IMG/VR virus record: IMGVR_UViG_3300024261_000038
Location: 1 to 55,662 of that record
DNA length: 55,662 nt
Origin: a virus
Lineage: Duplodnaviria; Caudoviricetes
Strand: one strand, 5' to 3'
Part shown: positions 1,309-54,561 of the stretch, one piece after another
Layout of the letters: the number at the start of each line of letters is the position of its first letter
How positions within the stretch are numbered: the first letter of the stretch is position 1
Translations under genes and position numbers: made by a program
The notes under the pieces: model-generated
What the model was told of the DNA's origin: nothing
Seen by the model: only the letters and a program-made list of their open reading frames with translations
Databases searched by the model: none

Positions 1309-4300
1309 TGAATCCTTATAGACTTAAAAATGTATTTGAATATCTAACATCTAACAACCAACTACTTAAACGTAAATTAAAATTAGGAACTAGTGAAATA
1401 CCTATCCCTCCTAAAAGACAAGATGTTATTGATATAGAAGCTATCAACAGATTTAACAAAAATAATCCTCGTGTAGATACAACTAATGTTCAACCTGTTG
1501 TTAAACAGTCTACAATAAAACAATCTAATGTAGGTGAAATTGATGAAGGCGTGATCCAAGGTGCGTTCGACACGGCTACTATGGAAGCAAGAGATGGAGG
1601 CTACCCTGCACCAGTTTATGAGGCTTTTAAAAAAAGATACTTAAAAAGAAACATGAAAGCAGATGGTGGAAGGATTGGTTACAAAGACGGAGAGGGTGTT
1701 ATAACCGTTGATGATAAAATCGATGAGATGATTTCTTTTTACAAAGATTATTTAAACCAAGGTGGCAAGATGGATTTTAAAACCTTTTCTAAAAAATACA
1801 TACCAGAGAATTTTGAAAAAGGCGGACGTGCAGGTTACGAGGACGGACCAAAGCTAACTGATTTTCTCGATGTCCAAGCTTCAGGATCCAAGAGTGGTAA
1901 ACAACAAATCGAAGGTGCACCAAAAGGTATTACTGCTGATAGTGAAACAATAAACGCTATTATAAAAGCAGACATACCTGTATCTGAAAAAATAAATCTT
2001 CTTGCAACTTACGGTTACGGTAAGAGTAGAAATAGAATCGAAAACAAAGATCAAGAAATATTTTTAGATGAAGGGGGCTATAGAGACAGAAACGTTGGTA
2101 TAGACTTTAATAGAGATGGAGAAGGTCTTAGTGGTTCTGCTACCTATGGTATTGATACAGGTGAGCCACAGTTAAATATAAAATACAAAAAGAGTTTTGC
2201 TGACGGTGGTATGTTGGTACAACCTAGTGACGACGGATCACGGCCAGGGTATGCTAAAATGAAATTAGACGACGATACTATTCAAAAAATAAAAAATAAA
2301 GTTGCTTTAAAAAAAGGACAAAAATGGAATTTTTATGATCCAGAAACAAATCCAAAAGGACATACATATGGTGTTCCAAAAGGAGATACTAATTATGATA
2401 TTGCAAGAAATTTAAAACCAGGAAGATTAGAAGCAAAGTTAGAAAAAGCTACAGAAAAATACAAAGAAATAAAAGCTGATCCTAAATTATTGGCTGAAAA
2501 AAAATTAACAGATAAAGAAAGATATCAAACTAATAGAACTCAAATATTAGAAGACAAAAATTTTCAATATGAAACAGATAAAGATTATAGAGAAAAAAAA
2601 TTAGAATGGGCTAAACAAGATAGAATTAAAAATCCGGAAAAATATAAACAAAAATTAAATGATTATTTTGCAAAGAAAGGAAGATTTCCTCCGGGAAATA
2701 ACTATAAAGAAAATGTTTGGAGAGATATGTTTAGATCTTCACAAAAGGCAGGACAAGAAAGATTCTTGCTTGTCGGAGAAGACGGTAAACTTTTAACTCA
2801 AGATAAATTTCCTATAAAAGAAGGTAAAGTAAGATGGGACATTGGAGGTGCTTATAAGAAAGTAAAATTTTATGACACTAAAACAAAACAATTTGTAAAG
2901 TTTGATAATACTACTAAAGGAAAAGGTATAAGTTTTGAAAAATACTTGGATCAAAAATCTGTTGGCGGTAAAGGTGCTTATGAAGATGCTATTAATGGAT
3001 ATAAAAACAAAGATAATATAAAAGATTTAACTTTTAAAAATTCAAAAGGAAAAGATATTCGCCTAGGAACTATTGTGCAATCAAAATTAAATGATGGCGT
3101 TAATTTTATAAATAGTGGTGTCAATGTGCAACATCCGGATATTAACAATGCTTTTTGGAAAAATGAAGTTTCTCTAGCTTCTTCCAACAATGAATTAAAT
3201 TATTTAGAACAAACATTAGACAGAAAATTAAAAAATGCTGGAAACGATGTTACTTTAAGAAATAAAGCATTAAGTGAATTTAAAACTAAAATAAATAAAT
3301 TAGAAGGTGGTATAACTAAAATTATAGATGGTGAAACTTTTGGAGTAGCACCTAATGAAAAATCAGTTGTGAAAGCGGTAGGTAAAGAATCACGTTTAAA
3401 TAATTTTAAAGAATTTAAAACACTAGTAGCGGCTTTAGGTCCAGGCACGTGTTCCGTGTTTAGTGGTAAGAAAGCAGATGGTGGCCGTATAGGTCTTGCA
3501 ACAGGGACCCCTAACATAGATAAATGTTATGATGCTGCAACTGCAGCTATAAACTCTGGTAAAGTTCCTGTGGATAAAGCAGATGACTTTACTAAACTTT
3601 TAAAAAGAATGGGTACTATTGGAAGAGGTATTAGGAAGTTTGGTATCATACCGGAAGCAATGTACGTTGCAGCAGATTCTCTTGTTAGACTTGGTATGGG
3701 AAGTACTTTTAAAGAAGCGGGTTTACTAGCCTCCGATTATTTATTACCAGGAGACCAAACTAAAGCAGCAGAAATGAGTAAGGTTTCAAGAATTTTTGGT
3801 GACACTACAGGTGAGCTTGTAGGAAGGGTTATTGATTATAAAAATCAATTAGCAAAAATACAAAGTCTAGAGGATCAAATATCAAATCTTGATAATTTAT
3901 CTGATGTAGGAGAGTTTGATTATATGGGAGATTTATCTGGTGAATCTAATACTAAAAAAAATTTACTTTCACAAGCAAAGAATGATTTAGATAATAAGTT
4001 TAAAATATCAGAAGCAGAACAACTATATGCTGAAAGAAAACAAGAAGAGGCATATGATGCAAGTTCAGCTAACTCTTCGTTTTCAAACTTAAAAAGAAAA
4101 TATGGGGATTCATCAAATAATATAGATGATATAGAACAATTAGCATCACCTGAGAAAACTCAATTACAATTAAATTTAGATATGCTGCCAGCAGTACCTA
4201 AAGATTTTATGATGACAACAGATGATGAACTAACAAATTATGTTAATGCAGAAAGCGTAAGAAGCGGTGAAAAATTAGACCCACAAGTTTACATAGATGA

Positions 4301-4631
4301 AAAAGAAAAATTAAAAAAAGATTTCATGACCAAAGGTCCAGGTGTATATGGAGCAGAACAAGTATACGGAACACAAGGAATTTTTGCAGAACCTTTATTA
4401 AAAAGTATAGCTCGTAAGGAAAATTCAATAAACGATCTTGAAAGAGAAGTGGTCGGTCAAAGAAATAAATTTAATATTTTCGATAGAGATCATTCAGTTC
4501 TAGGAACGGGACTTAGAGGTTTTTCAGCGGCATCAGGAGGCATAGCAAGCCTAACTAAGACCATTCCACCAGAATCAGGGCCAACACCTCAAGGGTTGCC
4601 TTATGTATATAATAATGTTAAGAAGATATAG
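1308..4631 (+). CDS. 1107-aa modular virion-associated protein (xxGG-delimited modules, beta-barrel-like and possibly degenerate HNH-like segments)
   Basis: Long ORF with GGAG RBS, directly upstream of portal; motifs KADGGRIG (x2), FEKGGRAG, FADGG, AASGG. Confidence 0.7.
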   Translation: MNPYRLKNVFEYLTSNNQLLKRKLKLGTSEIPIPPKRQDVIDIEAINRFNKNNPRVDTTNVQPVVKQSTIKQSNVGEIDEGVIQGAFDTATMEARDGGYPAPVYEAFKKRYLKRNMKADGGRIGYKDGEGVITVDDKIDEMISFYKDYLNQGGKMDFKTFSKKYIPENFEKGGRAGYEDGPKLTDFLDVQASGSKSGKQQIEGAPKGITADSETINAIIKADIPVSEKINLLATYGYGKSRNRIENKDQEIFLDEGGYRDRNVGIDFNRDGEGLSGSATYGIDTGEPQLNIKYKKSFADGGMLVQPSDDGSRPGYAKMKLDDDTIQKIKNKVALKKGQKWNFYDPETNPKGHTYGVPKGDTNYDIARNLKPGRLEAKLEKATEKYKEIKADPKLLAEKKLTDKERYQTNRTQILEDKNFQYETDKDYREKKLEWAKQDRIKNPEKYKQKLNDYFAKKGRFPPGNNYKENVWRDMFRSSQKAGQERFLLVGEDGKLLTQDKFPIKEGKVRWDIGGAYKKVKFYDTKTKQFVKFDNTTKGKGISFEKYLDQKSVGGKGAYEDAINGYKNKDNIKDLTFKNSKGKDIRLGTIVQSKLNDGVNFINSGVNVQHPDINNAFWKNEVSLASSNNELNYLEQTLDRKLKNAGNDVTLRNKALSEFKTKINKLEGGITKIIDGETFGVAPNEKSVVKAVGKESRLNNFKEFKTLVAALGPGTCSVFSGKKADGGRIGLATGTPNIDKCYDAATAAINSGKVPVDKADDFTKLLKRMGTIGRGIRKFGIIPEAMYVAADSLVRLGMGSTFKEAGLLASDYLLPGDQTKAAEMSKVSRIFGDTTGELVGRVIDYKNQLAKIQSLEDQISNLDNLSDVGEFDYMGDLSGESNTKKNLLSQAKNDLDNKFKISEAEQLYAERKQEEAYDASSANSSFSNLKRKYGDSSNNIDDIEQLASPEKTQLQLNLDMLPAVPKDFMMTTDDELTNYVNAESVRSGEKLDPQVYIDEKEKLKKDFMTKGPGVYGAEQVYGTQGIFAEPLLKSIARKENSINDLEREVVGQRNKFNIFDRDHSVLGTGLRGFSAASGGIASLTKTIPPESGPTPQGLPYVYNNVKKI

Positions 4632-4640
4632 GAGTAATAA

Positions 4641-8751: not shown

Positions 8752-9127
8752 AATTATTGGTGTAAAAAAATCAGAGAAAAAAGAAGAGAAAGAACCTAAG
8801 TTACCAAAACCTACTGGGTGGAGGATGATAGTTTTACCTTTTAAAATGAAAGAGAAAACTAAAGGTGGATTAGTATTAGCTGAAACAACTTTGGAGAGGC
8901 AACAAGTTGCATCTCAAGTTGGATTAGTTTTAGCTATGGGCCCACAATGTTATAAGGATAAAGAAAGATATCCTGAAGGTCCATGGTGCAAGGTCAATGA
9001 TTGGATAATGTTTGCACGTTATGCTGGATCACGGATCAAGATAGATGGCGGAGAAATGCGTCTTCTAAACGACGACGAAGTGTTAGCAACAATTGATAGT
9101 CCAGAGGACATCTTGCATGAGTTTTAA
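8714..9127 (+). CDS. groES: Co-chaperonin GroES (Cpn10 family)
   Basis: PTGWRMIV, KTKGGLVL mobile loop, VLAMGP, FARYAG, LLNDDEVLA; AAGGAG RBS. Confidence 0.9.
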   Translation: MKEQSSILTPNNKIIGVKKSEKKEEKEPKLPKPTGWRMIVLPFKMKEKTKGGLVLAETTLERQQVASQVGLVLAMGPQCYKDKERYPEGPWCKVNDWIMFARYAGSRIKIDGGEMRLLNDDEVLATIDSPEDILHEF

Positions 9128-15848: not shown

Positions 15849-16286
15849 ATGGCAATATCATCAGCAATTTGTACAAGTTTCAAACAAGAAATCTTAGTAG
15901 GTACTCACAATTTTACAGCAACAAGTGGAAACACTTTTAAAATAGCTTTATATACAAGTTCAGCATCACTAGGTGCAAGTACAACAGCTTATAGTGCAAC
16001 AAATGAAATTACAAATGCATCAGGAACTGCTTATACTGCAGGCGGTGCAACTCTTACAAGTGTAACTCCTACAACTTCAGGAACTACAGCGATATGTGAT
16101 TTTGCAGATGTTAGTTATACTTCAGCATCTTTTACAGCGAATGGTGCTTTAATTTATAATGACACAAATTCTGATAAAGCTTGTGCAGTTATCGCTTTTG
16201 GTAGTGATAAAACTGTAACTAGTGGAACTTTCACTATTCAATTTCCAACAGCAGACGCAAGTAACGCAATCATTCGTATAGCGTAA
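15849..16286 (+). CDS. Putative tail structural protein
   Basis: T/A/S-rich; FKIALYT and GALIYN motifs typical of tail-fibre attachment proteins. Confidence 0.55.
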   Translation: MAISSAICTSFKQEILVGTHNFTATSGNTFKIALYTSSASLGASTTAYSATNEITNASGTAYTAGGATLTSVTPTTSGTTAICDFADVSYTSASFTANGALIYNDTNSDKACAVIAFGSDKTVTSGTFTIQFPTADASNAIIRIA

Positions 16287-16299
16287 GGAGGAAGTCCTT

Positions 16300-17193
16300 A
16301 TGGCTACATCAATTTGGGGCGGAGATGATCCCTCAGTAGCATGGAATGAAAATTCATGGCAATCTAATCTTGCAACAGTTATATTAACAGGAGTTTCAAC
16401 AACAACATCAGTCGGATCTATAGATGCTTTTAATACAGCAGGATGGGGATCGGATGCTTGGGGTGAAGATGGTTGGGATGGAACTTTTACAGTAGTTTTA
16501 ACAAGTGCAGGTGTTGCAACAACAGCTGTTGGTTCTGTAGAAGTAGATGCAGAAATAGGTTCTGGTTGGGGCCGAGGTGAATGGAACAACAACGAAGGTT
16601 GGGGTATTCAAGGAACTGTAATACTTGAAAGTTTATCTGCAACTGTATCTTTAGGTTCTGTAACAACTGCTGATGTAATGGGACTAACAGGAGTTTCTGC
16701 AACAGCTAGTATTGGATCAGTTACAATGATCGGTAACGTAGTTGTGACTCCAACAGGAATTTCTGCAACAACAAATTTAGGATCAGTTACTGTTGCTGAT
16801 GTAATGGGACTAACAGGAGTTTCTGCAACAGTAAGTGTAGGATCTATTTCTCCTGCAGATGTTATGGGAGTATCTACAGCAGGAGTTGGAACAACAGCTA
16901 TTGGAGATGTTGGTGTTACTTCAAACCCTACTATTTTACCAACAGGAGTTTCTGCAACAGTAAGTGTAGGATCTATTTCTCCTGCAGATGTTATGGGATT
17001 AACAGGAGTTTCTGCAACAGCTTCAGTAGGAAGTTTAAGTCCTCCTGTTGTAATGGGGTTAACAGGAATTTCTGCAACAATAAGTGTCGGAGACTTATTT
17101 ATTCAGGCATATCAAGATGTTGACACAGGTTCAAATACATCGTATACAAGTGTTGCAACAGGATCAAATACAAGTTATAGTGACGTTGCATAA
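16300..17193 (+). CDS. Repetitive fibre-like virion protein
   Basis: N-terminal WG repeats, then about 20-aa repeats (VMGLTGVSATxSVGSI). Confidence 0.6.
   Translation: MATSIWGGDDPSVAWNENSWQSNLATVILTGVSTTTSVGSIDAFNTAGWGSDAWGEDGWDGTFTVVLTSAGVATTAVGSVEVDAEIGSGWGRGEWNNNEGWGIQGTVILESLSATVSLGSVTTADVMGLTGVSATASIGSVTMIGNVVVTPTGISATTNLGSVTVADVMGLTGVSATVSVGSISPADVMGVSTAGVGTTAIGDVGVTSNPTILPTGVSATVSVGSISPADVMGLTGVSATASVGSLSPPVVMGLTGISATISVGDLFIQAYQDVDTGSNTSYTSVATGSNTSYSDVA
16668..16998 (+). repeat. Internal direct repeats in the fibre gene
   Basis: 58-bp identical copies at 16812-16869 and 16941-16998; 38-bp identical copies at 16668-16705 and 16794-16831. Confidence 0.85.
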
Positions 17194-24227: not shown

Positions 24228-24233
24228 TATAAT
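24205..24233 (+). promoter_or_regulatory. Sigma70-type promoter restarting the tail operon after the inverted cassette
   Basis: TTGACC-17 nt-TATAAT. Confidence 0.7.
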
Positions 24234-24261
24234 GAGGAATATTAACATAAAAAAGACTATC

Positions 24262-35700: not shown

Positions 35701-36173
35701 AACTATCTCGTAATTTTAGCTTGCAAGAGCTTATTAAATCAGACACGGCTATACGTAAGGGCATTAATAATGAACCCAATGCTGATCAAATAGATAAATT
35801 AAAAGCATTGTGTGAAAATATTTTACAGCCAGTGCGTGATCAATTTGGTAGAGTTAAAGTGACCAGCGGATTCCGTTCTCCTGAGCTGTGCACAGCCATA
35901 GGATCAAGTTTAACTAGTCAGCACTCAAAAGCTGAGGCGGTTGATTTCGAATGTATGGGAGTTGACAATGCTGAAGTAGCGGATTGGATAAAACAAAATT
36001 TAGAGACAGATCAATTGATACTCGAATACTACACGCCTGGAGAACCTAATTCGGGGTGGATTCACGCAAGTTACATACCTTTTAACCCTAGACATCAATA
36101 CATGCGGGCTTACCGTGAAGATAAGAAAACTAAATACAAGCCTATTATTGGTAGAGCAGTAGATTTAGTTTAG
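35697..36173 (+). CDS. Peptidase M15A family endolysin
   Basis: SGFRS...SQH...AVD...WIH zinc-ligand pattern. Confidence 0.8.
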   Translation: MKLSRNFSLQELIKSDTAIRKGINNEPNADQIDKLKALCENILQPVRDQFGRVKVTSGFRSPELCTAIGSSLTSQHSKAEAVDFECMGVDNAEVADWIKQNLETDQLILEYYTPGEPNSGWIHASYIPFNPRHQYMRAYREDKKTKYKPIIGRAVDLV

Positions 36174-38023: not shown

Positions 38024-38291
38024 AAAACATTATTTAAAAGAAAGATTAAATAAAACAGAAAAATGGATTGAACATTATTTAGAAACAGAAGACCATATAC
38101 AAATTTCTAGAAATGCTCTTAAACAATCATATAATGAAATTCATTTTTTAATAAGTTGGACAGTAAAAATACTTCACTTACCAACTAAAATTTATGATTT
38201 TATTTACACTATAATTTGGTGGAATAGATATCGTAAAGCATGTAAAGAAGTTGAAATTATAAGAAAGGAATTAGAAAGTTATGACAATTAA
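38016..38291 (+). CDS. Hypothetical protein
   Basis: AAGGAG RBS; overlaps both neighbours; very AT-rich. Confidence 0.55.
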   Translation: MIRKHYLKERLNKTEKWIEHYLETEDHIQISRNALKQSYNEIHFLISWTVKILHLPTKIYDFIYTIIWWNRYRKACKEVEIIRKELESYDN

Positions 38292-38832
38292 TTTTGAACA
38301 AGATCAACAAGATGCAATGAAAAAAACTGAAAACATTCAGTCTCTTGCAGATCAAGTAGAAATGTTAGAGGGCTTGCACAAAAGAATAGAGGCAAGTGAA
38401 ACTAACATTAAAGATTTAAAAAAAGAATACCAACGTATATCGGGTGAGGTTATTCCCACCATGATGTCCGAGATGGGTTTAGCAGAATTAAAACTACAAG
38501 ATGGATCACATCTTAAAGTTTCAACGACGTATCGTGCTACTATTACAGAAGCAAATAAAGAGACGGCGTTTAACTGGCTTCGGGACAATGGATTAGGTGA
38601 TATTATTAAGAACGAGATCTTGGTATCATTTGGTCGTAACGAGGATAACAAGGCAGCAGAATATGCTGATCTTGCGAAGGGTCACGGGTTTCAACCAACA
38701 CAAAAGATGAAGGTTGAGCCCATGACTCTGAAAGCGCTAGTCCGTGAGCGTATTGAGGCAGGTAAAGAAATGCCAACGGAAATCTTTGGGGTATTCTCAG
38801 AGAATAAAACAACTATAAAAAGGAACAAATAA
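38281..38832 (+). CDS. Conserved phage replication-module protein
   Basis: N-terminal coiled coil; AFNWLRDNGLGDIIK and VEPMTLKA motifs. Confidence 0.65.
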   Translation: MTINFEQDQQDAMKKTENIQSLADQVEMLEGLHKRIEASETNIKDLKKEYQRISGEVIPTMMSEMGLAELKLQDGSHLKVSTTYRATITEANKETAFNWLRDNGLGDIIKNEILVSFGRNEDNKAAEYADLAKGHGFQPTQKMKVEPMTLKALVRERIEAGKEMPTEIFGVFSENKTTIKRNK

Positions 38833-41230: not shown

Positions 41231-43011
41231 TGTTAGACAAATTTTACAGGAGAAGATATAAAATTTTAGGTGGTCCAGGTTGTGGTAAAACAACCAAGAT
41301 ATTAGAAATTCTAGCAGATTATATTAAAGGAGGTGTTAACTTAGATCAAGTTTTATTAATTGGTTTTGCTAAAGCAACAGCAGAGGAATTACGAGCTAGG
41401 GTTATTAAAAAAGGTTTATTGACAGAAAAGCAAGCTGAATCAATTAAAACAATACATAAATTTTGTTTAGATCATATAGGTAAACACGATATCTTGAACT
41501 CCAGTGTAAAAAAAGATTTTAAAAAAAGAATGGCTTCTGATCCTGACACTTGGGTTATGTTGGATGATGAAAAATACGACAGGGATGATGACGTGCCTGC
41601 AGCATGGACTGAAAAAGAAGATAAAAAATTAGCTATTTATTATGACATAATAAACAAAGCACATCATAAAATAGGTTTTGATAAAAGACATAAATACAAA
41701 GATGATTTAGATAAAATTATAAGTTACTTTAGAGAAAGTGAAAACGATAAATTTAAATATGTACACACAGCGCAATTAACTTATTTTTATACTAACCTTA
41801 AAAAATTTAAAAGTCAGACAGGAGTTATTGATTTTGATGATATGTTATTAAAAGCTTTATACCCCACAGTAGAATTTCCATCTTATAAATTAGTGCTGGT
41901 TGATGAAGTACAAGATCTTTCAAAATTAGAATGGCAGGTCATATCTAAAATAGCACAAAAAACTGAAGAATTATTTTTAGTTGGTGATGATGATCAAGCT
42001 ATATATGGGTGGAAAGGATCAGACGTTCGTTTATTTCAAAAATGGCCTTGTAAAAAAGAAAATGTTACGCGTTTAGAAACATCTTATAGGCTTCCAGGAA
42101 AAATATATGACTTTGCTATAGGTATAAGGGATGAAATAAATAATAGATTAGGTAATGAATTTACTTGTCATAAAAGAATACACCCAGAAAATAAAGACGA
42201 AGGACATATCTCCTATATAAATGGTTTAGATGAAATAGAACATTTAAATAAAGATTCTCAAATAATTCTTTGTGCAAGAACGAATGCTCTTCTTAGACCT
42301 TACGCTGAATTTTTAAAAGAAAATAATTTAATATGGCTAGAAAAATCACAAAGCATGGATGACAGGGGTAAATTTAAAAGTTCTTTTCCCGACGGTTGTA
42401 AAGAAGTCATAGAGTTTTGGCATACTCTACAAGAAGGACATCCAATTAAAGGTACAAGTTACATAAAAATGGTTAAACAAATGAATGTAGAATTTATTTC
42501 TGAAAGAAAGAAAACTGCTTTATCTAAAAAAGATACAGCGCCAATAGAATTATATGAAGCAGACAAGATGTTTTCATATGAAGAATTAAAAAACAAATTT
42601 TATCTCAATGCTTCTTTAGAAAAAATGTGGCATGAAATTTTTTATTTTGATACTACACGAATTCAATCAGCTAAAAAACCTAAAGCTATATTTAGAGATA
42701 GAGAAGACTTTAACTATTACCTAAAAGGTTGTTGGGAAAAAAATAAAAATTTAACGACTGAAATTACATTATCAACTATTCATGGGGTAAAAGGAAGAGA
42801 AGCTGACAAAGTAGTTTTATGTGTTGAATGGGGTTATTCCTTAAATGCATATAATAAAGGAAATCAACAAGACGAAGACGAGGAAATTAGGGTTTGTTAT
42901 GTAGGTGTTACTAGAGCTAAAAAAGAATTATATTTATTTCAACCACCTGGATATAACAAATATCCTTTTCCATTATTACAAACTTACTTAGGAGAAAAAT
43001 ATGACGGATAA
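41230..43011 (+). CDS. UvrD/Rep-like SF1 helicase
   Basis: GGPGCGKT, VDEVQD, GDDDQAIY, STIHGVKGRE, YVGVTRAK. Confidence 0.9.
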   Translation: MLDKFYRRRYKILGGPGCGKTTKILEILADYIKGGVNLDQVLLIGFAKATAEELRARVIKKGLLTEKQAESIKTIHKFCLDHIGKHDILNSSVKKDFKKRMASDPDTWVMLDDEKYDRDDDVPAAWTEKEDKKLAIYYDIINKAHHKIGFDKRHKYKDDLDKIISYFRESENDKFKYVHTAQLTYFYTNLKKFKSQTGVIDFDDMLLKALYPTVEFPSYKLVLVDEVQDLSKLEWQVISKIAQKTEELFLVGDDDQAIYGWKGSDVRLFQKWPCKKENVTRLETSYRLPGKIYDFAIGIRDEINNRLGNEFTCHKRIHPENKDEGHISYINGLDEIEHLNKDSQIILCARTNALLRPYAEFLKENNLIWLEKSQSMDDRGKFKSSFPDGCKEVIEFWHTLQEGHPIKGTSYIKMVKQMNVEFISERKKTALSKKDTAPIELYEADKMFSYEELKNKFYLNASLEKMWHEIFYFDTTRIQSAKKPKAIFRDREDFNYYLKGCWEKNKNLTTEITLSTIHGVKGREADKVVLCVEWGYSLNAYNKGNQQDEDEEIRVCYVGVTRAKKELYLFQPPGYNKYPFPLLQTYLGEKYDG

Positions 43012-43240
43012 AAATATGTTAGAGGAAGCTTTTCCTCAAGACAAACAAATTGGAGGATCTCACTACAAAGACTTCCACATTCAACCTTATGAATTTATTT
43101 CAAAGAATAATTTATCGTTCTTTCAAGGAAACGTTGTGAAATATGTTTGTAGATATTTACATAAAAATAAGATAGAAGATCTTGAGAAGATCAAACACTA
43201 TTGTGATCTAGAAATTAAAAAGATGAAAGATACAAAATGA
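43001..43240 (+). CDS. DUF3310 (SaV-like) protein
   Basis: QIGGSHY...GNVVKYVCRY...EDLEK. Confidence 0.75.
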   Translation: MTDKNMLEEAFPQDKQIGGSHYKDFHIQPYEFISKNNLSFFQGNVVKYVCRYLHKNKIEDLEKIKHYCDLEIKKMKDTK

Positions 43241-45165
43241 TACAAAAACCTTTATTCACTGCACAGACAGAATGGTTTCCACCAGATGATTTTCCAGATT
43301 TATCTAAGTATGATGAGATAGCTATCGACTTAGAAACTAAGGACCCAGATTTAAAAACAAAAGGTTCTTCATCAATGAGAGGACAAGGAGATGTAGTTGG
43401 TATTGCAGTAGCTGTTAGAGATTGGTCAGGCTATTATCCTATCGCACATGAATCAGGTCCCAACATGGAAAGAAAAAAAGTTCTTGGTTGGTTTCAAGAT
43501 GTACTTAAAACAAAAGCAGATAAAGTATTTCACAATGCTATCTATGATATGTGTTGGATTCACAGACTAGGGCTCACGGTTCACGGAACAGTTGTTGATA
43601 CAATGGTTATGACTTCTTTAGTTAATGAAAACAGATTTAGATATGACTTAAACTCTGTAGCACAACACTATACAGGTATGGGTAAAAATGAATCTGCATT
43701 ACAAGAAGCAGCAAAAGATTGGGGTGTTGATCCTAAAGCAGAGATGTACAGACTTCCTGCTATGTATGTAGGTGAGTATGCTGAAAGAGATGCAGAAGTA
43801 ACTTTAGCTTTGTGGCAAGAACTTAAAAAAGAAATTGAACATCAAGACTTACAATCGATTGTTGAATTAGAACAAAAAGTTTTTCCTTGTATACTAGATA
43901 TGAAAGTAAAAGGTGTAAGGGTTAGTGAATCACAGGTTGATCAACTAGATCACCAATTAAAATTGTCTTATGATAAATATATAAAAAGAATACATGACGA
44001 CACAGGTATGTATCCTGAAGTTTGGGCTGCAAAAAGTATTGAACTTGTATGTAACAAACTAGGTATTGATGACTTTGATAGAACAGAGAAGACACAGAAA
44101 CCTTCTTTTACAAAAAACTATTTAAAGAATCACAAACATCCAGTGCTTCGAGCTATCGCAAGTGCAAGAGAACTTGATAAACTAAAGAATACTTTCTTAG
44201 AGTCTATTAAGAATTATGTTTATAATGGTAGAATACATGCAGATATACATCAGTTAAAAGGAGACTTTGGAGGAACCATAACCGGCAGGTTATCTTACTC
44301 AAATCCTAACCTACAACAATTACCTAACTATAGTAATATTGGTAAGGGTATTAGGTCTATATTTATGCCTGAAGAAGGCCGTAGATGGGGTTGTTTTGAC
44401 TATTCTCAGCAAGAGCCTAGGCTGGTAGTGCATTATGCTTTAGCAACGCTAGGAACCACTGGGGTTCAATCTATTGCAGATAAGTATGATGAAGCAGGGG
44501 AAAACCCATATGATTCAGATATTCAAAAAGCAGCAGACTTTCATAGTATGGTAGCTGAAATAGCAGACATAGATAGAGGACAAGCTAAAACAATTAATCT
44601 TGGTTTGTTTTATGGTATGGGTAAAGCTAAACTACAAGCACAACTAGGTGTAACTGAGCAAGTAGCCAAAGATCTTTTAGAAACGTACCATAGTAAAGTA
44701 CCATTTGTAAAACAATTGATCCATCACACAATGGACCGTGCTCAACAAAGAGGTTGGATTAGAACTATACTAGGTAGAAAATGTAGATTTAACATGTGGG
44801 AACCAGCATCGTTCGGGATGCACAAACCACAAACATTTGATGATGCGTGCATGGAACACGGATCACGGAACATTAAAAGAGCATTTACATATAAAGCATT
44901 AAATAAATTAATTCAGGGTAGTGCGGCAGATATGACTAAGCAATCTATGATAAATCTAAGAGAAGCTGGTATTACTCCAATGATTCAATTACATGATGAG
45001 TTAAATGTATCATATGAAAATGAAGAAGAAGCTGATAAGATAAAAGAAATAATGGAACAAGCTGTTCCATTAAAGGTACCCAACAAAGTTGATTTTGAAG
45101 ATGGTGAATGTTGGGGTGATATTGTAAACAACAGAGAGGAAGAGGAAGACAAGGACTTCTTTTAA
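43237..45165 (+). CDS. polA: Family A DNA polymerase with 3'-5' exonuclease
   Basis: DLET, FHNAIYD, TGRLSYSNPNLQQ, DYSQQEPR, KTINLGLFYG, IQGSAAD, QLHDEL. Confidence 0.93.
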   Translation: MIQKPLFTAQTEWFPPDDFPDLSKYDEIAIDLETKDPDLKTKGSSSMRGQGDVVGIAVAVRDWSGYYPIAHESGPNMERKKVLGWFQDVLKTKADKVFHNAIYDMCWIHRLGLTVHGTVVDTMVMTSLVNENRFRYDLNSVAQHYTGMGKNESALQEAAKDWGVDPKAEMYRLPAMYVGEYAERDAEVTLALWQELKKEIEHQDLQSIVELEQKVFPCILDMKVKGVRVSESQVDQLDHQLKLSYDKYIKRIHDDTGMYPEVWAAKSIELVCNKLGIDDFDRTEKTQKPSFTKNYLKNHKHPVLRAIASARELDKLKNTFLESIKNYVYNGRIHADIHQLKGDFGGTITGRLSYSNPNLQQLPNYSNIGKGIRSIFMPEEGRRWGCFDYSQQEPRLVVHYALATLGTTGVQSIADKYDEAGENPYDSDIQKAADFHSMVAEIADIDRGQAKTINLGLFYGMGKAKLQAQLGVTEQVAKDLLETYHSKVPFVKQLIHHTMDRAQQRGWIRTILGRKCRFNMWEPASFGMHKPQTFDDACMEHGSRNIKRAFTYKALNKLIQGSAADMTKQSMINLREAGITPMIQLHDELNVSYENEEEADKIKEIMEQAVPLKVPNKVDFEDGECWGDIVNNREEEEDKDFF

Positions 45166-45170
45166 TATGA

Positions 45171-45821
45171 ATGGCTTACTTAAATGCAAACATACCAGCA
45201 ACTTATGCACAAATAAAAAGAGAATATTTATATGATCTTAAAAAACATCATGGAGAAGTTGAAGACTGCATTGTGTTTGGTCTTAGCGCTCTTACAGGTC
45301 GTGCTATATTATTTCATGCTATTATGGAAAACGGTGCAGTATTTTATCGCTTACCAATTAGCGCGTTTATTCAAAAGGGATTTGAACCATCCAGAGTGCC
45401 CGCAAGACGACTTGATGAACTACAGCTCTGGAATAGTTTTTCTTATTATCCTTCTGTCCATCGTTGGGATATACTAGACGGACAAGCAGGAAAGTATATT
45501 GGTAAAGATAAGAAGTGGCATCCAGGTAAGTATTTATTTACCGTTGACTTTGCACATCCAGATAGTAATATACTTGACACTGATCATTCAGAGATTCCGC
45601 ACGAACATAAGTGCGCACACATAATTGCCCTCGATGATGGTAATTTTGCAGCACAACCTAACAATAGATGTATATGGGACTTACCTTCTTTCACTGTGAA
45701 AGATGATATTCCTGATTGGAAAGTGCAAACTTCTGAATGGAATGTTGAAGATAGTAGAGCCTGGCGGACAGAAGATACCGACAAGTTCTTCTATGAAATC
45801 GAGGAGAAAAAAAATGATTGA
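45171..45821 (+). CDS. Conserved phage hypothetical protein
   Basis: 216 aa; YLFTVDF, EHKCAH and AQPNNR motifs; function unknown. Confidence 0.65.
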   Translation: MAYLNANIPATYAQIKREYLYDLKKHHGEVEDCIVFGLSALTGRAILFHAIMENGAVFYRLPISAFIQKGFEPSRVPARRLDELQLWNSFSYYPSVHRWDILDGQAGKYIGKDKKWHPGKYLFTVDFAHPDSNILDTDHSEIPHEHKCAHIIALDDGNFAAQPNNRCIWDLPSFTVKDDIPDWKVQTSEWNVEDSRAWRTEDTDKFFYEIEEKKND

Positions 45822-46851: not shown

Positions 46852-47032
46852 AAAAACTAATACAGCATTAATAGCATTGTTGGGTACAATCCTAATGGGT
46901 CTCGCTACATGGACATTGGTCACACTCATAGAACTTCAGTTAATAGTAACTATGATCCAGTCGGACCTAATGTCTATTGACAAGCAATTCGGTCGCGTTT
47001 ATAATTTCATCGATTCTGTTAGAGGTAAATAA
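46844..47032 (+). CDS. Small membrane protein
   Basis: MSRKTNTALIALLG... TM helix plus short coiled coil. Confidence 0.5.
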   Translation: MSRKTNTALIALLGTILMGLATWTLVTLIELQLIVTMIQSDLMSIDKQFGRVYNFIDSVRGK

Positions 47033-47375: not shown

Positions 47376-47502
47376 ACAAAGTTTTAAGTTCTTTACACCC
47401 CGAAATAAACCCAAGAAACGTGGACCACGTCAACATAAAAAATCATTAAATAAGTCAGAAAAAAGACAGAAAAAACAGAAAAGATACAAAGGACAGGGTT
47501 GA
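47368..47502 (+). CDS. Small very basic protein ending YKGQG (44 aa, not in ORF track)
   Basis: MAKQSFKFFTPRNKPKKRGPRQHKKSLNKSEKRQKKQKRYKGQG. Confidence 0.6.
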   Translation: MAKQSFKFFTPRNKPKKRGPRQHKKSLNKSEKRQKKQKRYKGQG

Positions 47503-47946: not shown

Positions 47947-48005
47947 TTGAAGCTTGGATTATATTAGAAGTCGTGGCTATAACAGTTTATTTGTTAAGCC
48001 AATAA
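47943..48005 (+). CDS. Possible 20-aa hydrophobic peptide
   Basis: MIEAWIILEVVAITVYLLSQ; ATGA-coupled to the upstream gene. Confidence 0.4.
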   Translation: MIEAWIILEVVAITVYLLSQ

Positions 48006-48019
48006 AATTTAAAAGCTCA

Positions 48020-48126
48020 AGGGCGTCCAAATCTGCCAATGGCATTTCCCTGTACGTTAGCGATGACCGAAAGGTAGCAACCTGGAGTTTGGCCGGCTGT
48101 GAGTACGTCGACGGAAAGCAGCTGGT
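48020..48126. ncRNA. Candidate structured non-coding RNA
   Basis: GC-rich intergenic segment with several stems, including ACC-GAAA-GGT and GCCGGCTG/CAGCTGGT. Confidence 0.5.
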
Positions 48127-48127
48127 T

Positions 48128-48346
48128 TTATATGACCCTATCTGACTTACACGAAAATTTAGTATAAACTTCCATACTGTTAACCCATTCCGGATCAAAT
48201 TCTGTTAATAATCTGTGTGAATAACTATAACCATAAACTATGCAGCTATGGTAATCATTAAATAATTTTTCATTGGTGGGTATAACTTTACATTTATTTT
48301 GTGCCATTCCGGAACACAAAACCATAAATAAAATAAATTTTGTCAT
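48128..48346 (-). CDS. Small exported/membrane Cys-containing protein (72 aa)
   Basis: MTKFILFMVLCSG...; AGGA RBS on the minus strand; the longer listed start overlaps a + strand gene. Confidence 0.55.
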   Translation of the reverse strand: MTKFILFMVLCSGMAQNKCKVIPTNEKLFNDYHSCIVYGYSYSHRLLTEFDPEWVNSMEVYTKFSCKSDRVI

Positions 48347-48575: not shown

Positions 48576-48750
48576 GAAGGTTTACATTTGTCCTACCTGT
48601 AGAGGTAATGGCTATGTAAAAGTCGCATGCATTTATGAAAAAGAAGATATGGTTCATCAATGCTGGGATTGTGGATCTCAAGGAGAGCTATATGATTATG
48701 GAAATGAAGATTTTCCTGACTTTGAGGGAGAAGGGATGTCAATACACTAA
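48553..48750 (+). CDS. DnaJ-type zinc-finger protein
   Basis: CPTCRGNG...CWDCGSQG. Confidence 0.65.
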   Translation: MANSKKVKKVYICPTCRGNGYVKVACIYEKEDMVHQCWDCGSQGELYDYGNEDFPDFEGEGMSIH

Positions 48751-49190
48751 TGATACCTGATACTGACAAAGCCTATATTGCAGGACTGTTTGACGGAGAA
48801 GGGTCCATACATATAAGACGTGGCATTGAAAAGAAAAAGAAACACAAGGGTAAACCTGGATACAGATACTCTAATAGTTTACGTTTATCTATGGAGATTA
48901 CGATGACTGATCGTAGTGTGTTGATGTGGGTACATGAAACGTTAGGTGTTGGAACATTAGCACCTAAGAAAGTAAAAGGCAAACGAGTTGACGGTACGCC
49001 TTATCTTAAACAATATAGATGGCGATGTACTTTTCGGGACGCATACTATGTATGCGCCTTAATTTGGCCTTGGGCTCATACTAAACTGCCTAAGATACAA
49101 AGAGTAATAGAGCACTATACTAACGTTGCACTTAAGGATAATGTGATCTCAATGGAAGAATATAAAATGGTGAGGAAAGATGTTCGATAA
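48750..49190 (+). CDS. Free-standing single-motif LAGLIDADG endonuclease-like protein
   Basis: AYIAGLFDGEGSI motif. Confidence 0.75.
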   Translation: MIPDTDKAYIAGLFDGEGSIHIRRGIEKKKKHKGKPGYRYSNSLRLSMEITMTDRSVLMWVHETLGVGTLAPKKVKGKRVDGTPYLKQYRWRCTFRDAYYVCALIWPWAHTKLPKIQRVIEHYTNVALKDNVISMEEYKMVRKDVR

Positions 49191-49320: not shown

Positions 49321-49332
49321 ATAAATACAACT

Positions 49333-50022
49333 ATGAAGAAGAAAAGAGAATGTATGAAGAAGAATGAAGAAGAACAAATAAAATTATCTATATTTAATTG
49401 GGGACCTTGTGTTACACATTTTAAATGTGATGATGCATTTATAGATTTACTTATAAAAGAAGGTAAAAAAGGTAAACAAGACTACAGAGATAAACTTGCA
49501 GGACAAATTAAAGAAGAGATAGGTTATTCTGAAGAGTCAAAAAAGTTAATATTACCAAGACTTTCCCAGTTTATAGGGGTCTATGATCAAGCTTTTGAAA
49601 GGTATCAAAGCAAACCTTATGAAACAAAACCTGAGTATGTGTTATCAGCACTCTGGATAAATTATCAAAAACAACACGAGTATAATCCACCACACGATCA
49701 TGATGGTAGATTGTCGTTTGTTATCTATCTTGATATGCCAAAAAAATTAGAAGAAGAACAAAAAAATTATGTAGGTAAATCTTGTGGACCTGGAGGAATA
49801 CAATTTTTATATGGAGAAGGACCAAGAGATGCAGTAACTACATTATCTTTTTCTCCTAAAAAAGGAGATATGTTTATTTTTCCTTCTTGGTTGAAACATT
49901 ACGTTGCGCCTTACAAATCTGATTGTACACGAATCAGTGTGAGTGGTAACTTTCATGACCAAGTCCCTATAAATAATGTTATAAATTTCGCACCTAAATA
50001 TTTAAAAAATGCAAAAAAATGA
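49333..50022 (+). CDS. 2OG-Fe(II) oxygenase-like protein
   Basis: WINYQ...NPPHDH...SFVIYL...FPSWLKHYV...RISVSGN; start may be 49354. Confidence 0.75.
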   Translation: MKKKRECMKKNEEEQIKLSIFNWGPCVTHFKCDDAFIDLLIKEGKKGKQDYRDKLAGQIKEEIGYSEESKKLILPRLSQFIGVYDQAFERYQSKPYETKPEYVLSALWINYQKQHEYNPPHDHDGRLSFVIYLDMPKKLEEEQKNYVGKSCGPGGIQFLYGEGPRDAVTTLSFSPKKGDMFIFPSWLKHYVAPYKSDCTRISVSGNFHDQVPINNVINFAPKYLKNAKK

Positions 50023-50753
50023 AGAAGAGTGATCGATATAGATATATGTCCGGACAGATGTACGAGCATCACGGAACACGGCTCTATGACTTTGGCGGAG
50101 AAAGATTGCCGTCTGTTACAACCATTTTAGGATTGACAAAAGATCAAAGTTTTATAAAGCAGTGGCAAAAAAAGGTAGGCCATGAAAAAGCAGAACAGAT
50201 CAAGAATCATAGTAGTAAACGTGGGACTTCCATGCATAAATTCCTGGAATGTCACGTCACAGGAGTTGGATACGATGATCTATCGCCCATTGGGACGGAA
50301 GCTAAACCGATGGCTGAAAAGATTATTGAAGTGGGTTTATTACCCGTTGAAGAGTATTATGGTTCGGAAGTTACGTTACACTATCCGGGGCTGTACGCAG
50401 GCTCAACAGATCTTGTATGCTCACACAATGGCATGGAAACTATTGTTGACTTCAAGCAGGCCAATCGTCCGAAGAAGAAAGAATGGATCGAAGATTATTA
50501 TTTGCAAATTGCAGCATACGCCATGGCACACGACTATGTCTACAAATCTGAAATTAGGCAGGGAGTTATCATGGTATGCACGCCTGACCTATATTATCAA
50601 GAATTTAAAATAGAAGGACCTGAATTAAGGCGCTATAAACATGAGTTTCTCAAAAGATTGGACATGTATCATGACCTAAAATTTGATGAAAAAGAAAGAA
50701 CCAAACCAATGAAAGCGGAAGATTTTAATGTTCAGGAAGATAAGACCAAATAA
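50019..50753 (+). CDS. PD-(D/E)xK exonuclease (RecB/Cas4-like)
   Basis: PSVTTIL, RGTSMH, YAGSTDL...IVDFKQ, YYLQIAAY. Confidence 0.8.
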   Translation: MKKSDRYRYMSGQMYEHHGTRLYDFGGERLPSVTTILGLTKDQSFIKQWQKKVGHEKAEQIKNHSSKRGTSMHKFLECHVTGVGYDDLSPIGTEAKPMAEKIIEVGLLPVEEYYGSEVTLHYPGLYAGSTDLVCSHNGMETIVDFKQANRPKKKEWIEDYYLQIAAYAMAHDYVYKSEIRQGVIMVCTPDLYYQEFKIEGPELRRYKHEFLKRLDMYHDLKFDEKERTKPMKAEDFNVQEDKTK

Positions 50754-50883: not shown

Positions 50884-51086
50884 AACAAATGCAGATAGAA
50901 GAGATGGAAAAAGAAGACGAAAGAGCAAGAGAACATAAGATACAAATGGTAAAAGATGGTGAAGCTGATGAAGATATATTCGATTTAACAAACAATATAT
51001 GTCAAGAGGGCTGTGGAAACTATCTTACGGTTGTAGAAGATGGTTGGGGTATTTGTCTTGATTGTAGAATCGAGAAAGATGACTGA
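50871..51086 (+). CDS. Small acidic protein with Cys motif
   Basis: AAGGAG RBS; CQEGC...CLDC. Confidence 0.6.
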   Translation: MGAVKQMQIEEMEKEDERAREHKIQMVKDGEADEDIFDLTNNICQEGCGNYLTVVEDGWGICLDCRIEKDD

Positions 51087-51657
51087 TCAAACGAGTAAAA
51101 AATATTATCAAGAAAATAGAATAGAAATAACAATTAAAAGAAAAAAATTTTATCAAGATAATGTTGAAAGAATAAAAACTAATCAAAAAAAATACTACTT
51201 AAAAAATAGAAAAGAAATTTTAGAAAAACGAAAAGAATATCAGACAATTTATAGAAAAAACAATAAAGAAAAAACTCGTATTAGTAATGAAAAATATATT
51301 CGTACTGAACAAGGATTCTTTAGGTCTATGTGGGGATCGTGTAAAAAAAGTAAACACGGGTGTGATTTTAAAGATTTTAATGAGTTTTTTAATTGTTGGT
51401 TAGAACAAAAAGCTGTATCTGGAATGATTTGCCCTGCAACAGGGGTTGAAATGACTATGGAACCTGGAAAAGGATTAAAAAGACATTTTACTAATGTTTC
51501 AAAAGACCGTATTTTATCTACAAGAAGTTATTCTAAAGAAAATTTAATATTTACTACATATGGATTTAATTCTAGTAAATGTAATCTATCACCTAAAGGT
51601 GCTAAAGCTTTTTTAAGAATTGTAAAAGAAAGGTACGGTACCGATGAAATTGAATAA
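51079..51657 (+). CDS. HNH-like (His-Me finger) endonuclease
   Basis: K/Y-rich helical N-terminus; CPATG...SKDRI...YSKEN...FNSSK; start likely MTDQT. Confidence 0.6.
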   Translation: MTDQTSKKYYQENRIEITIKRKKFYQDNVERIKTNQKKYYLKNRKEILEKRKEYQTIYRKNNKEKTRISNEKYIRTEQGFFRSMWGSCKKSKHGCDFKDFNEFFNCWLEQKAVSGMICPATGVEMTMEPGKGLKRHFTNVSKDRILSTRSYSKENLIFTTYGFNSSKCNLSPKGAKAFLRIVKERYGTDEIE

Positions 51658-51696: not shown

Positions 51697-52437
51697 ATGA
51701 AAACAGTTTTAAGCACAAAAGGAATTTGTTTAATCCATAATCATAATTATAAAGATAACCCTGAAAAGTATACAATTCTTTTTCAAAGAAGAAAATGCAA
51801 AGGAAAAATTTATGAATACAGAGGTATTATATGTTCAGAATGTAAAATAAATAGAAGAAAAGAATATTACATTAAAAACAAAGAACATGAATTAAAACGA
51901 AATAAAAACTGGCGTGATAAAAATCCTGAAAAATTAACACTTGCAGCTAGAATAAGCAGTCTTAAACATCATTTAAAAATAACAGATGCTGAAGCTCATG
52001 ATATTATAAGAAAAAAAAGAAATATACTTACTAGTAATTGGAAAAAAAATAACCCAGAAAAAAAAAATAAAAGTCAAAGATTATATAGAAAAAGAAGAAT
52101 GGCTAGGGATCCAGGATTTAAATTATTAAATAATTGCAGGACTCAAATACATAGAGTTTTAAAAGGTAATATTAAATCTAAAAAAACTAAAGAATTACTT
52201 GGTTGTACTGTAGAACAATTAAAAAGACATTTGTCTAGTAAATTTATAGATAATATGAGTTTTGAAAATTATGGGAAGTGGCATGTAGATCACATTAAAC
52301 CTTGTGCTAAGTTTGATTTTACTAAACCCGAAGAACAAGTTAAATGTTTTCATTACACAAACCTACAGCCTTTATGGGCTATAGATAATTTTAAGAAAGG
52401 AGCAAAGTATGACGGATCAAACGAGGTGGGGCATTGA
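51697..52437 (+). CDS. HNH endonuclease
   Basis: WHVDHIKPC...CFHYTNLQPLWAIDNFKK; N-terminal CxxC; GGAGG RBS. Confidence 0.8.
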   Translation: MKTVLSTKGICLIHNHNYKDNPEKYTILFQRRKCKGKIYEYRGIICSECKINRRKEYYIKNKEHELKRNKNWRDKNPEKLTLAARISSLKHHLKITDAEAHDIIRKKRNILTSNWKKNNPEKKNKSQRLYRKRRMARDPGFKLLNNCRTQIHRVLKGNIKSKKTKELLGCTVEQLKRHLSSKFIDNMSFENYGKWHVDHIKPCAKFDFTKPEEQVKCFHYTNLQPLWAIDNFKKGAKYDGSNEVGH

Positions 52438-52609: not shown

Positions 52610-52800
52610 AATGATTCTAATGTATCAGGGTTCATGGAGCACGGACCATGGAACTGTGGAACTCCCATGGAACTTTTTTTTCGGCTTAGAAACCGCTATA
52701 TATAAGAGATATCTAGACCAAAAGAGAAAAAGTTCCACGGTACCATCACTTTTTTTTCATCTGAACAAAAAAAGTGTTTTGGTCTGGAGAGGGTATATAG
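52606..52800. other. Non-coding region with nested direct and inverted repeats (candidate origin or packaging/regulatory site)
   Basis: TTAGAAT-G-ATTCTAA palindrome; TGGAACT x3 plus one inverted copy; further inverted repeats. Confidence 0.45.
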
Positions 52801-52812
52801 TAGGAATAAGTT

Positions 52813-53676: not shown

Positions 53677-53682
53677 GTCAAT

Positions 53683-53928: not shown

Positions 53929-54164
53929 GAGTACAAGACCTTCAGTTGTTTCTCGGTAACTTTACAAAAGGATCTGACGCAGTAAAAAATGCTGTCATCT
54001 TCGTAGAGATACAAGGAAATTTACATGAGATTAGACGAATGGAAGTACATGAAAATGCTATTCCAATTATCGGTCAACCAGGCCACAGTACACATAGGTT
54101 AGTTATGAAAACCCATAAACCTTCTAAGCTTATCTTGCCAGATAAACTTCAGAAGGACTATTAA
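53925..54164 (+). CDS. Hypothetical protein
   Basis: ATGA-coupled 79-aa ORF. Confidence 0.6.
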   Translation: MRVQDLQLFLGNFTKGSDAVKNAVIFVEIQGNLHEIRRMEVHENAIPIIGQPGHSTHRLVMKTHKPSKLILPDKLQKDY

Positions 54165-54192
54165 TGAATGACAGTGTTACTTTAAAAAAGGT

Positions 54193-54561
54193 ATGGGACC
54201 AGAGCGTAAATTATATCAAAAAGTTAAGAATAATTTTAAAGATTTTTCGCTTATTAGACTTGAAAATAATAGCTTACTTGGTACTCCCGATCTATTGGTG
54301 TATAATAATTCTGGCCACTTTTTCACTATCGAGTTGAAAGTCACGAAGGGTAACAAACTTAAGTTTTCACCACACCAAATTAGCTTTCATGTGAGGCATC
54401 CACACAATACATTTATCATAGCAGAGGCCCTTGGTCCAGGTACCGTGAAACTTTTCCGTGGTTCACGAATCATGGAGCTTGACGCTTGCGGGTTTAAGCT
54501 TGACGCTTGCTGCTTGGGGCTTGACGCTTGTCGCTTGATGCTTCAGGAGCTTGGGGCTTGA
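54193..54561 (+). CDS. PD-(D/E)xK nuclease (VRR-NUC / Holliday-junction-resolvase-like)
   Basis: E...GTPDLL...IELK...SPHQ; C-terminus runs into the heptad array. Confidence 0.7.
   Translation: MGPERKLYQKVKNNFKDFSLIRLENNSLLGTPDLLVYNNSGHFFTIELKVTKGNKLKFSPHQISFHVRHPHNTFIIAEALGPGTVKLFRGSRIMELDACGFKLDACCLGLDACRLMLQELGA

Follow-up and report, generated by a model that had tools for sequence, protein, structure and literature searches.

Contiguous 7-bp units written into the coding sequence of an HTVC023P-type pelagiphage may form a DNA lattice

RESULTS

The subject of this study is a set of short sites built from contiguous 7-bp units, dispersed along the genome of a tailed virus (Duplodnaviria; Caudoviricetes), together with the long arrays of 7-bp units beside its terminase small subunit gene (terS). 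The DNA analyzed, hereafter the window, is the whole of IMG/VR record IMGVR_UViG_3300024261_000038 (55,662 nucleotides [nt]), which is linear, estimated to be 69% complete, and has a GC content of 34%. Genes were called as greedy open reading frame (ORF) picks, and the + strand carries ca. 87% of the called coding sequence (CDS), which explains why A exceeds T and G exceeds C on that strand. The gene order agrees with that of Pelagibacter phage HTVC027P: primase, helicase, DNA polymerase A (polA), and exonuclease are followed by a minus-strand terS and a repeat-flanked minus-strand block, and then by the portal, GroES, capsid, and structural genes. By this gene order, the window was therefore assigned to the HTVC023P-type pelagiphages, a family that is very abundant in the ocean and most of whose genes have no known function. 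The record does not include the stretch between the repeat block and the terminase large subunit. For comparison, we used 240 related loci plus five long relatives (G001 to G005, the window being G000); these relatives share ancestry, and conservation counts among them are not independent events. Family-range statistics covered seven genomes (G000 to G005 and HTVC027P), with HTVC010P, a podovirus of similar GC content that infects the same host (HTCC1062) but is not related to this family, for comparison.

An earlier note, made from the letters alone, had listed ten + strand sites with a 7-base period in this genome and had written their unit as ACGGAWC. All ten strings were recovered as quoted. 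Their tandem heptads stood, whereas the unit is better written in another phase, as CANGGNN (consensus, CACGGAH), which is used below. In this phase, the sites, all on the + strand, begin with GACGGAT CACGGCC AGGGTAT at 2232 to 2252 in gene 1308-4631, where Gly-Ser-Arg is encoded as GGA TCA CGG; the relative G001 carries the same GGATCACGG at 23411, with similar flanks. Two sites lie in the GroES-like gene (GAAGGTC CATGGTG CAAGGTC, 8975 to 8995; GCTGGAT CACGGAT CAAGATA, 9023 to 9043). The virion structural gene 24142-26439 contains six units (GCTGGTA CACAGAG ACTGGCC GACGGAT CACGGAT CATGGGA, 25456 to 25497), and gene 31065-35012 contains five units of mixed orientation (CAAGGCT CTTGCAA CACGGGG CAAGGAC CTTGCAT, 31703 to 31737). 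The SNF2-type helicase gene 36170-37600 is on the minus strand, and the two units within it (CACGGAT CAAGGAA, 37020 to 37033) keep the + orientation, as the note had remarked. Further along, GAAGGGT CACGGGT occupies 38676 to 38689 in gene 38281-38832, two sites are found in polA (TAGGGCT CACGGTT CACGGAA, 43568 to 43588; CATGGAA CACGGAT CACGGAA, 44850 to 44870), and another is at the start of the exonuclease gene (CGAGCAT CACGGAA CACGGCT, 50063 to 50083). An intergenic site of four units (CAGGGTT CATGGAG CACGGAC CATGGAA, 52626 to 52653) continues into a hairpin plus T-run, with a terminator-like match directly after it at 52654 to 52670. The last site, CGTGGTT CACGAAT CATGGAG (54457 to 54477), encodes G-S-R-I-M, like that at 25478, and is in register with the first long array. 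A scan for in-phase cores added two runs on the same strand, CAAGCTT CAGGATC CAAGAGT at 1875 to 1895 and CAAGAAA CGTGGAC CACGTCA at 47412 to 47432; G002 has a near-match to the latter at 16661 (CAAGAAA CGTGGAC CACGGCA). The intergenic site has likely counterparts in relatives. G005 carries similar units at 35288 (CATGGAC CATGGAA followed by ctgtggaact), and sites at 13776, 19408, and 54492 in G001, G002, and G003, respectively, are probably homologous to it, lying at a similar distance upstream of the first array.

These words are strongly enriched in the window. ACGGATC occurs eight times on the + strand and not at all on the − strand, and the same one-sidedness was found for ACGG-N3-ACGG (5 versus 0; positions 2233, 25478, 43576, 44858, and 50071) and for two consecutive ANGGNNC units (12 versus 0), with CACGG counting 22 versus 8. 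The null set comprised 1,000 within-gene synonymous-codon shuffles in which every protein and the codon usage of each gene were preserved; instances outside called genes remained unshuffled, such that some null values, e.g., those of G001, are inflated. None of the 1,000 shuffles reached the + strand counts observed for ACGG..CACGG (5, against a null mean of 0.07), A.GG..C in duplicate (12 against 2.63), CACGG (22 against 9.13), or GG..CA.GG (24 against 8.40), and shuffling of whole codons did not change the outcome. Thus, the enrichment over a codon-shuffled null that the earlier note had proposed as a check is confirmed. Since the motif had been picked after being seen, an unbiased scan was added, in which all 256 four-letter words were counted at spacings of 4 to 15 (3,072 tests). 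After the GCTT/CTTG words of the long arrays, ACGG at spacing 7 ranked at the top of the scan (k = 5; expected, 0.13; Poisson, 2.8e-7), and at each of the other eleven spacings it was found 0 to 1 times, in agreement with the proposed 7-base period. When 32 nonidentical instances from six genomes were aligned, the heptads beside the two defining units also showed C at position 1, A at position 2, and G at positions 4 and 5; therefore, the sites extend over 2 to 6 units. A further suggestion, that sites become denser toward terS, proved weak: the mean of the ten positions is 35.1 kb versus an expected 27.8 kb (z of ca. 1.4).

The signal resides in the nucleic acid rather than in the protein. 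CGG is indeed uncommon in the window (16 of 723 Arg codons) and is used at six of the listed sites (2241, 9032, 25486, 31719, 44866, and 50079), and half of the 16 CGG codons are preceded by an NCA codon. Four sites encode Gly-Ser-Arg as GGA TCA CGG and one encodes Gly-Thr-Arg as GGA ACA CGG; the polA site at 43575 is read in another frame. Gly-Ser-Arg was considered as a protein motif and rejected: four of the five ACGG-N3-ACGG pairs share a frame, for which the chance is ca. 0.14, and shuffles that preserve the peptide expect only 0.07 pairs. Because peptide-preserving shuffles fail to yield the motif, the signal must lie in the codons or the DNA, which is where the earlier note had placed it.

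The 7-bp phasing is exact and extends across the phage family. Observed and null counts for CA.GG..CA.GG on the + strand were 11 and 1.03 in the window, 6 and 1.33 in G001, 7 and 0.52 in G002, 9 and 2.87 in G003, 3 and 0.69 in G004, and 5 and 0.55 in G005; HTVC027P has none. We then reduced the unit to its 4-bp core, CA.G or C.TG in either orientation, with the long arrays masked and 100 shuffles made per genome. Triple in-phase cores at 7 bp numbered 9 in the window (null, 1.5), 12 in G001 (5.4), 13 in G002 (0.9), 8 in G003 (0.9), 4 in G004 (0.3), 2 in G005 (0.4), and 6 in HTVC027P (1.3), and these values were reached by 0 of 100 shuffles in each of the seven genomes. At periods of 5, 6, 8, 9, and 10, core triples stayed near the null. 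HTVC010P, the one phage of its kind in the comparison, has no tandem site and no period-7 triple (0.1 expected), indicating that the feature is a property of the phage family and not one of the host or of AT-rich CDS in general. The type of unit differs by clade, CACGG-rich in that of the window and CAAG/CAGG-rich in HTVC027P, and identical words are found in genes with no relation to each other as well as between genes.

Units of both orientations occur within one register. In G001 to G003, CA.G and C.TG cores are adjacent in CACGGAA CAAGGAA CTTGGAC and in CTTGATC CACGCTT CACGGGT, as they are in the window at 31703, and HTVC027P contains the mixed run CTTGATA CTGGTAT CATGACT CAGGCAT CAGGAAT. 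Approximately 70 to 89% of run units are CA.G, C.TG, or CATG, versus 61 to 66% of all C..G words. These results bear on the claim of the earlier note that the motif is strand polarized and forms a genome-oriented signal of the Chi/KOPS kind. The polarity is real as a count, but the count does not establish a polar function, since the shuffles give the same bias: GG..CA.GG is found on the two strands at 24:4, and the shuffles yield 8.4:1.4, the same ratio. The null itself is + biased because GG-rich words suit the purine-rich sense strand. This equal bias, the mixed orientations, the exact 7-bp phasing, and the absence from HTVC010P all argue against a Chi/KOPS-like signal. The helicase site is nonetheless one good case of orientation at the level of the genome rather than of the gene. 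Clustering of the sites with a simple mismatch rule gave only two clusters in minus-strand genes, one a singleton and the other the helicase site, seen in 7 loci; both are on the + strand.

Suppression of synonymous change at the sites, another check that had been proposed, was clearest in polA. There, the codon stretch at 43568 ranks 1st of 252 for excess synonymous conservation (21 sequences of 63 to 84% identity). Its codons CTA GGG CTC ACG GTY CAC GGA (43568 to 43588) are retained down to 61% protein identity, while neighboring codons vary freely, and the conserved block measures only ca. 23 bases. The second polA site (44850) is retained in 9 of 10 relatives of 79 to 95% identity; in alleles at ca. 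60 to 62% and 71 to 72% identity, CACGGAC CAGGGAT is kept there although the peptide is different and one residue shorter (EHGP-GI). Thus, the peptide varies while the DNA motif persists, both at polA 44857 and at the exonuclease site, where Ser and Thr toggle (TCA or ACA) and GGAWCACGG is unchanged; at the latter, 60 of 86 relatives encode the Arg with CGG or AGG. Overall, CGG or AGG encodes the Arg of motif positions in 25/25, 10/11, 60/86, and 3/4 relatives, versus 67 of 723 Arg codons in the window, and the rare codons GGG, CTC, ACG, CCG, and CGG are retained at sites.

Other sites have changed in ways that can be followed. At the structural-gene site (25456), whose codon stretch ranks 19th of 497 for excess synonymous conservation, 51 of 85 relatives have CAG or CAA at the CGG codon, and most relatives read GGA TCA CAG ATC; a single CAG-to-CGG change completed the second CACGG in a clade of ca. 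81 to 99% identity, and GGA TCA is nearly invariant. The GroES-like gene of G001 to G003 reads GGA TCA AGG ATC, such that the CANGG unit survives a CGG-to-AGG change. Relatives of the GroES gene itself (70 to 97% identity; L264 to L269) were also met on short contigs in Vibrio, SAR86, Chloroflexota, and Flavobacterium SCGC AAA160-P02 assemblies; these contigs probably represent phage DNA that was binned with the cells. At the site in gene 38281-38832, 10 of 17 relatives have AAG GGT CAA GGG, in which N3 of the core is altered and the unit is intact, and the rare GGG is present in 17 of 17. The 3′ end of this gene also folds into a strong predicted hairpin (38678 to 38728; −35.3 kcal/mol; z of −5.4; 0 of 200 shuffles as stable), with the heptad site forming part of its 5′ arm. 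The 31703 site is retained in L038 (92% identity) and L062 (52%) and lost in four relatives at ca. 72%. As for the helicase site (37020), 6 of 11 relatives (76 to 93% identity) share the sense codons GAG TTC CTT GAT CCG TGG, with flanking codons that vary, and the other five have the usual AT-rich codons (TTT TTA and similar). Here the gene's sense strand carries the motif as its reverse complement, which speaks against any explanation that rests on translation or on the mRNA of the gene itself.

Two other measures of conservation gave no signal. Across five genomes, the longest stretches without change fall in the capsid and GroES genes, none of them at heptads, a measure that was unhelpful because slowly evolving genes dominate it; raw codon identity was likewise uninformative on heptad conservation. 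We also considered, and set aside, the idea that sites mark recombination breakpoints: the left transition of polA falls near 43.4 to 43.6 kb, yet the motif is absent at that point from the partner genomes. The polA gene forms a diverged cassette (43000 to 45200 in comparison with G001/G003), with ca. 45 to 80% nucleotide identity inside, mostly 50 to 70%, and flanks of 83 to 90% before ca. 43.37 kb and 85 to 100% after 45.18 kb. L154 combines a helicase of 93.5% identity with a polA of 59%.

Beside terS, the 7-bp period is repeated at length. Array 1 (54477 to 54581, + strand) consists of ca. 15 GCTTGNN units in two subarrays offset by 2 bases, and array 2 (55348 to 55395, + strand) of ca. 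7 units. Three such blocks are found in G001 to G003 and HTVC027P and two each in G004 and the window, whose record stops where the third would be expected; array 1 is found in G001 to G004 and HTVC027P. In all six array-bearing genomes, the arrays lie on the + strand, and each long array runs one way. Read in the register of the dispersed units, they become CTTGNNG, i.e., an inverted CAAG core. The units at 54458 do enter array 1 in register, as the earlier note had observed, and this entry flank (xGTGGTT CACGWAT CATGGAG) is kept in phase in G000, G001, and G004, with one change in G002 and a variant in G003. The first half of array 1 encodes the C-terminal tail of ORF 54193-54561, which has weak PHROG matches to nuclease-type families and no Pfam match. 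The tail contains LDACxxx three times, with Leu at every seventh residue, and, as we read the sequence, every third unit avoids TGA; in HTVC027P, array and ORF tail are arranged likewise in an unannotated gap (16207 to 16499 and onward). TerS belongs to Pfam family Terminase_2 (31.7 bits; cutoff, 26.1), and its gene is ca. 0.9 kb from array 1.

On its minus strand, array 2 adjoins the −35 element of a promoter-like TTGACA-17-TATAAA (55319 to 55349, − strand; a consensus match only), located immediately downstream of the array on that strand and ca. 20 bases before the ATG of gene 54700-55299. This gene matches Pfam GP88 and is 72% identical (tblastn) to a stretch of HTVC027P that, from its equal length and position, probably corresponds to gp33. 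In the portion of a transcriptome study available to us, HTVC027P gp33 forms a temporal class of its own (PMC12753301).

Several other features of the window were recorded. An RF02976 RNA (Rfam, Flavobacterium-1) was matched at 48013 to 48127 (+ strand), overlapping a predicted 63-amino-acid ORF (47954-48145), and also in L248 (66 to 185) and L261 (17753 to 17873, − strand), with 90 to 97 bits against a cutoff of 58.9; in G001 and HTVC027P, a copy lies directly beside array 3. Three genes resemble homing endonucleases (48750-49190, 51040-51657, and 51697-52437; LAGLIDADG at 25.7 bits and PHROG matches to endonuclease and endonuclease VII). The pair at 51.0 to 52.4 kb adjoins the 52626 site on its upstream side and has no counterpart in G001 to G005; 51040-51657 weakly matches HTVC027P (39%). 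Two host-like genes, one resembling a tryptophan halogenase (21782-23194, − strand; PHROG 2928; E = 1.8e-102) and the other a 2OG-Fe(II) oxygenase (49333-50022, + strand), have no match in G001 to G005 or HTVC027P. A perfect sigma-70-type consensus (TTGACA-17-TATAAT) is present at 46977 to 47005 (+ strand), and ORF 16300-17193 contains tandem repeats of 60 and 129 bases at 16652 to 17091.

DISCUSSION

We propose that the sites constitute a cis-acting lattice of contiguous heptads in double-stranded DNA, putatively bound by a family-specific protein with one protomer or dimer per heptad, a reading to which we give somewhat less than an even chance. Since contiguous units, a core that points either way, long arrays at a promoter-like site, and shorter runs elsewhere match the omega/ParB system of plasmid pSM19035, a double-stranded lattice is the reading we favor. 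Each site would then be a short lattice in which 7-bp units follow one another without gaps and their 4-bp core, CANG, points in either direction, the units of this clade being mostly CACGGAH on the sense strand, and the protein would bind the heptads cooperatively, as omega/ParB does on pSM19035. High-occupancy sites may be provided by the three long GCTTGNN arrays next to terS, and the intragenic runs of 2 to 6 units may be secondary ones, read by the same protein or by a paralogue of it. For these runs, packaging initiation, replication, genome organization, and identity tagging are all possibilities; regulation is a further role that the sites may have, and a link of the heptads to the terminase is possible. 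A bolder version would be a genome-wide heptad code, in which a protein of no recognizable fold nucleates on the arrays by terS and reads the intragenic runs as tags of self-identity; such tags might single out phage DNA to be packaged or replicated, or distinguish self from coinfecting relatives, and the unit type would coevolve with its reader. We regard this version as quite improbable.

Several observations weigh against the proposed lattice. The 4-bp core holds little information, and the conservation counts come from kin rather than from independent samples. In 2.34 Mb of family loci, GG-type tandem units number 230 on the + strand and 1 on the − strand, and site clusters number 28 and 1, a bias with which a polar reader would be compatible. 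No reader has emerged from the searches made: a six-frame search of G000 to G004 with the ribbon-helix-helix (RHH) families PF01402 (RHH_1) and PF07764 (Omega_Repress) gave no hit at an E value of ≤1 in any of the five genomes, Pfam found no DNA-binding fold above the cutoff in 10 small ORFs, Pfam plus PHROGs gave no clear reader among 49 ORFs, and a single Atlas look-up returned only unnamed viral clusters. Moreover, the dispersed sites are mostly far from promoter-like sites, and none has a strong sigma-70-like site beside it; thus, ordinary operator function fails to explain them. Promoters for a phage RNA polymerase were rejected as the identity of the repeat, which is not promoter-like; the available text on HTVC027P states that this phage encodes no RNA polymerase (PMC12753301).

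A rival in line with the earlier note is a polar, strand-specific signal read on single-stranded or translocated DNA, be it a Chi-like protection of concatemer ends from host nuclease, a packaging guide, or priming or loading sites on a strand displaced by rolling-circle replication; the phasing could here, too, come from a lattice-forming protein with a footprint of 7 nt. The strand counts just given speak for it, as do the + orientation of both clusters in minus-strand genes and of the arrays in all six genomes, the phage-encoded exonuclease, and a Terminase_2 TerS close to the arrays. Yet the + bias equals the shuffle expectation, C.TG units stand in register with CA.G units, and 11 of 65 clusters fall on the − strand once CATGG units are allowed. 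A host Chi is made unlikely by HTVC010P, which shares the host and has no tandem sites, and the primase and replicative helicase of the window are only 25 to 33% identical to those of G001 to G003 despite the shared motif. We therefore hold a polar signal to be unlikely.

A similar weighing applies to an element acting in RNA, i.e., unstructured mRNA repeats bound by a ring- or lattice-forming RNA-binding protein. HutP reads UAG-N4 repeats, and CsrA reads ANGGA, a word contained in the units; 35 of 49 strict sites are sense oriented, and at 52626 the intergenic site passes into a hairpin (5′ arm) followed by a T-run, where terminator control is conceivable. This sense bias is, however, what composition predicts, the helicase site is antisense yet conserved, in-register C.TG units would read differently in RNA, 9 of 11 sites lack RNA structure (z of −1.4 to +1.5), and a search of the window for CsrA (PF02599) gave no match at an E value of ≤10. 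All this leaves an RNA element with a slim chance, and we rate equally low the suggestion that the sites have no function and arise from codon-context bias, clusters of rare codons for pausing, mutation, or gene-conversion tracts between coinfecting relatives. Rare GC-rich codons are indeed abundant at the sites, several sites are clade specific, and the family is highly mosaic, with polA at ca. 50 to 70% identity between flanks of 83 to 100%. Against this stand the recurrence of the words in unrelated genes and intergenic DNA, a signal exactly in phase at a spacing of 7 and not seen at 6 or 9, a helicase site that is the reverse complement of its gene's sense strand, the conserved block of ca. 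23 bases in polA amid freely varying flanks, and shuffles that preserve codon usage yet lose the motif.

A DNA signal overlaid on CDS constrains the evolution of the genes that carry it, and the 7-bp lattice offers a concrete probe for fishing out the DNA-binding protein in the cultured pair HTVC027P/HTCC1062.

Among known systems, Chi and KOPS resemble the dispersed sites in being short, G-rich words found genome-wide and mostly on one strand. They act as single words for which no phasing is needed, whereas the phage motif requires exact 7-bp tandem phasing, has mixed orientation, and is family specific in range. The parvovirus initiator protein NS1 uses (ACCA)2-3 sites dispersed throughout the viral genome; a short tandem origin-binding word is thus reiterated along viral DNA, including CDS, but with a period of 4, in a different type of virus, and with a known reader. 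The left-end repeats (SRL) of T7 likewise repeat a 7-base word by a genome landmark in a podovirus. Their CCTAAAG recurs at a period of ca. 13 rather than in contiguous heptads, and T7 SRL was set aside as an analogue for this weak resemblance. The pac regions of SPP1 and SF6 have sets of direct repeats beside the terS of a headful phage, and their TerS is of the same Pfam family (Terminase_2) as that encoded ca. 0.9 kb from the arrays here; in the portion of the source available, the SF6 TerS DNA-binding domain binds pac repeats weakly with little or no sequence preference, and that portion describes no 7-bp lattice (PMC4737164).

The likeness to the omega/ParB system is closer. The heptad of omega is WATCACW, whereas the cores here are CANG/CTTG, and the arrays here reach 15 to 21 units. 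As far as the accessible text goes, parS of pSM19035 is built of 7-bp repeats that adjoin one another and may have either orientation, and the omega operators are arrays of 7 to 10 units at promoters, with short runs bound less well (PMC9499535). The window and its relatives share with these sites gapless 7-bp units, enriched at period 7 only and running in one register, and a mixture of direct and inverted units (CA.G and C.TG) within that register. With regard to promoters, the likeness is less clear: array 2 abuts a promoter-like TTGACA-17-TATAAA (by consensus), and the dispersed sites lie away from strong promoter-like matches. The phage sequences differ from the omega system in that most sites have 2 to 6 units inside the CDS of a lytic phage and in that no RHH_1/Omega_Repress homologue, the two families searched for, was detected in G000 to G004. 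The main texts of two papers on this phage family and a general search yielded no description of the arrays or the dispersed heptads, and the closest known kind would appear to be the heptad operators of omega/ParB.

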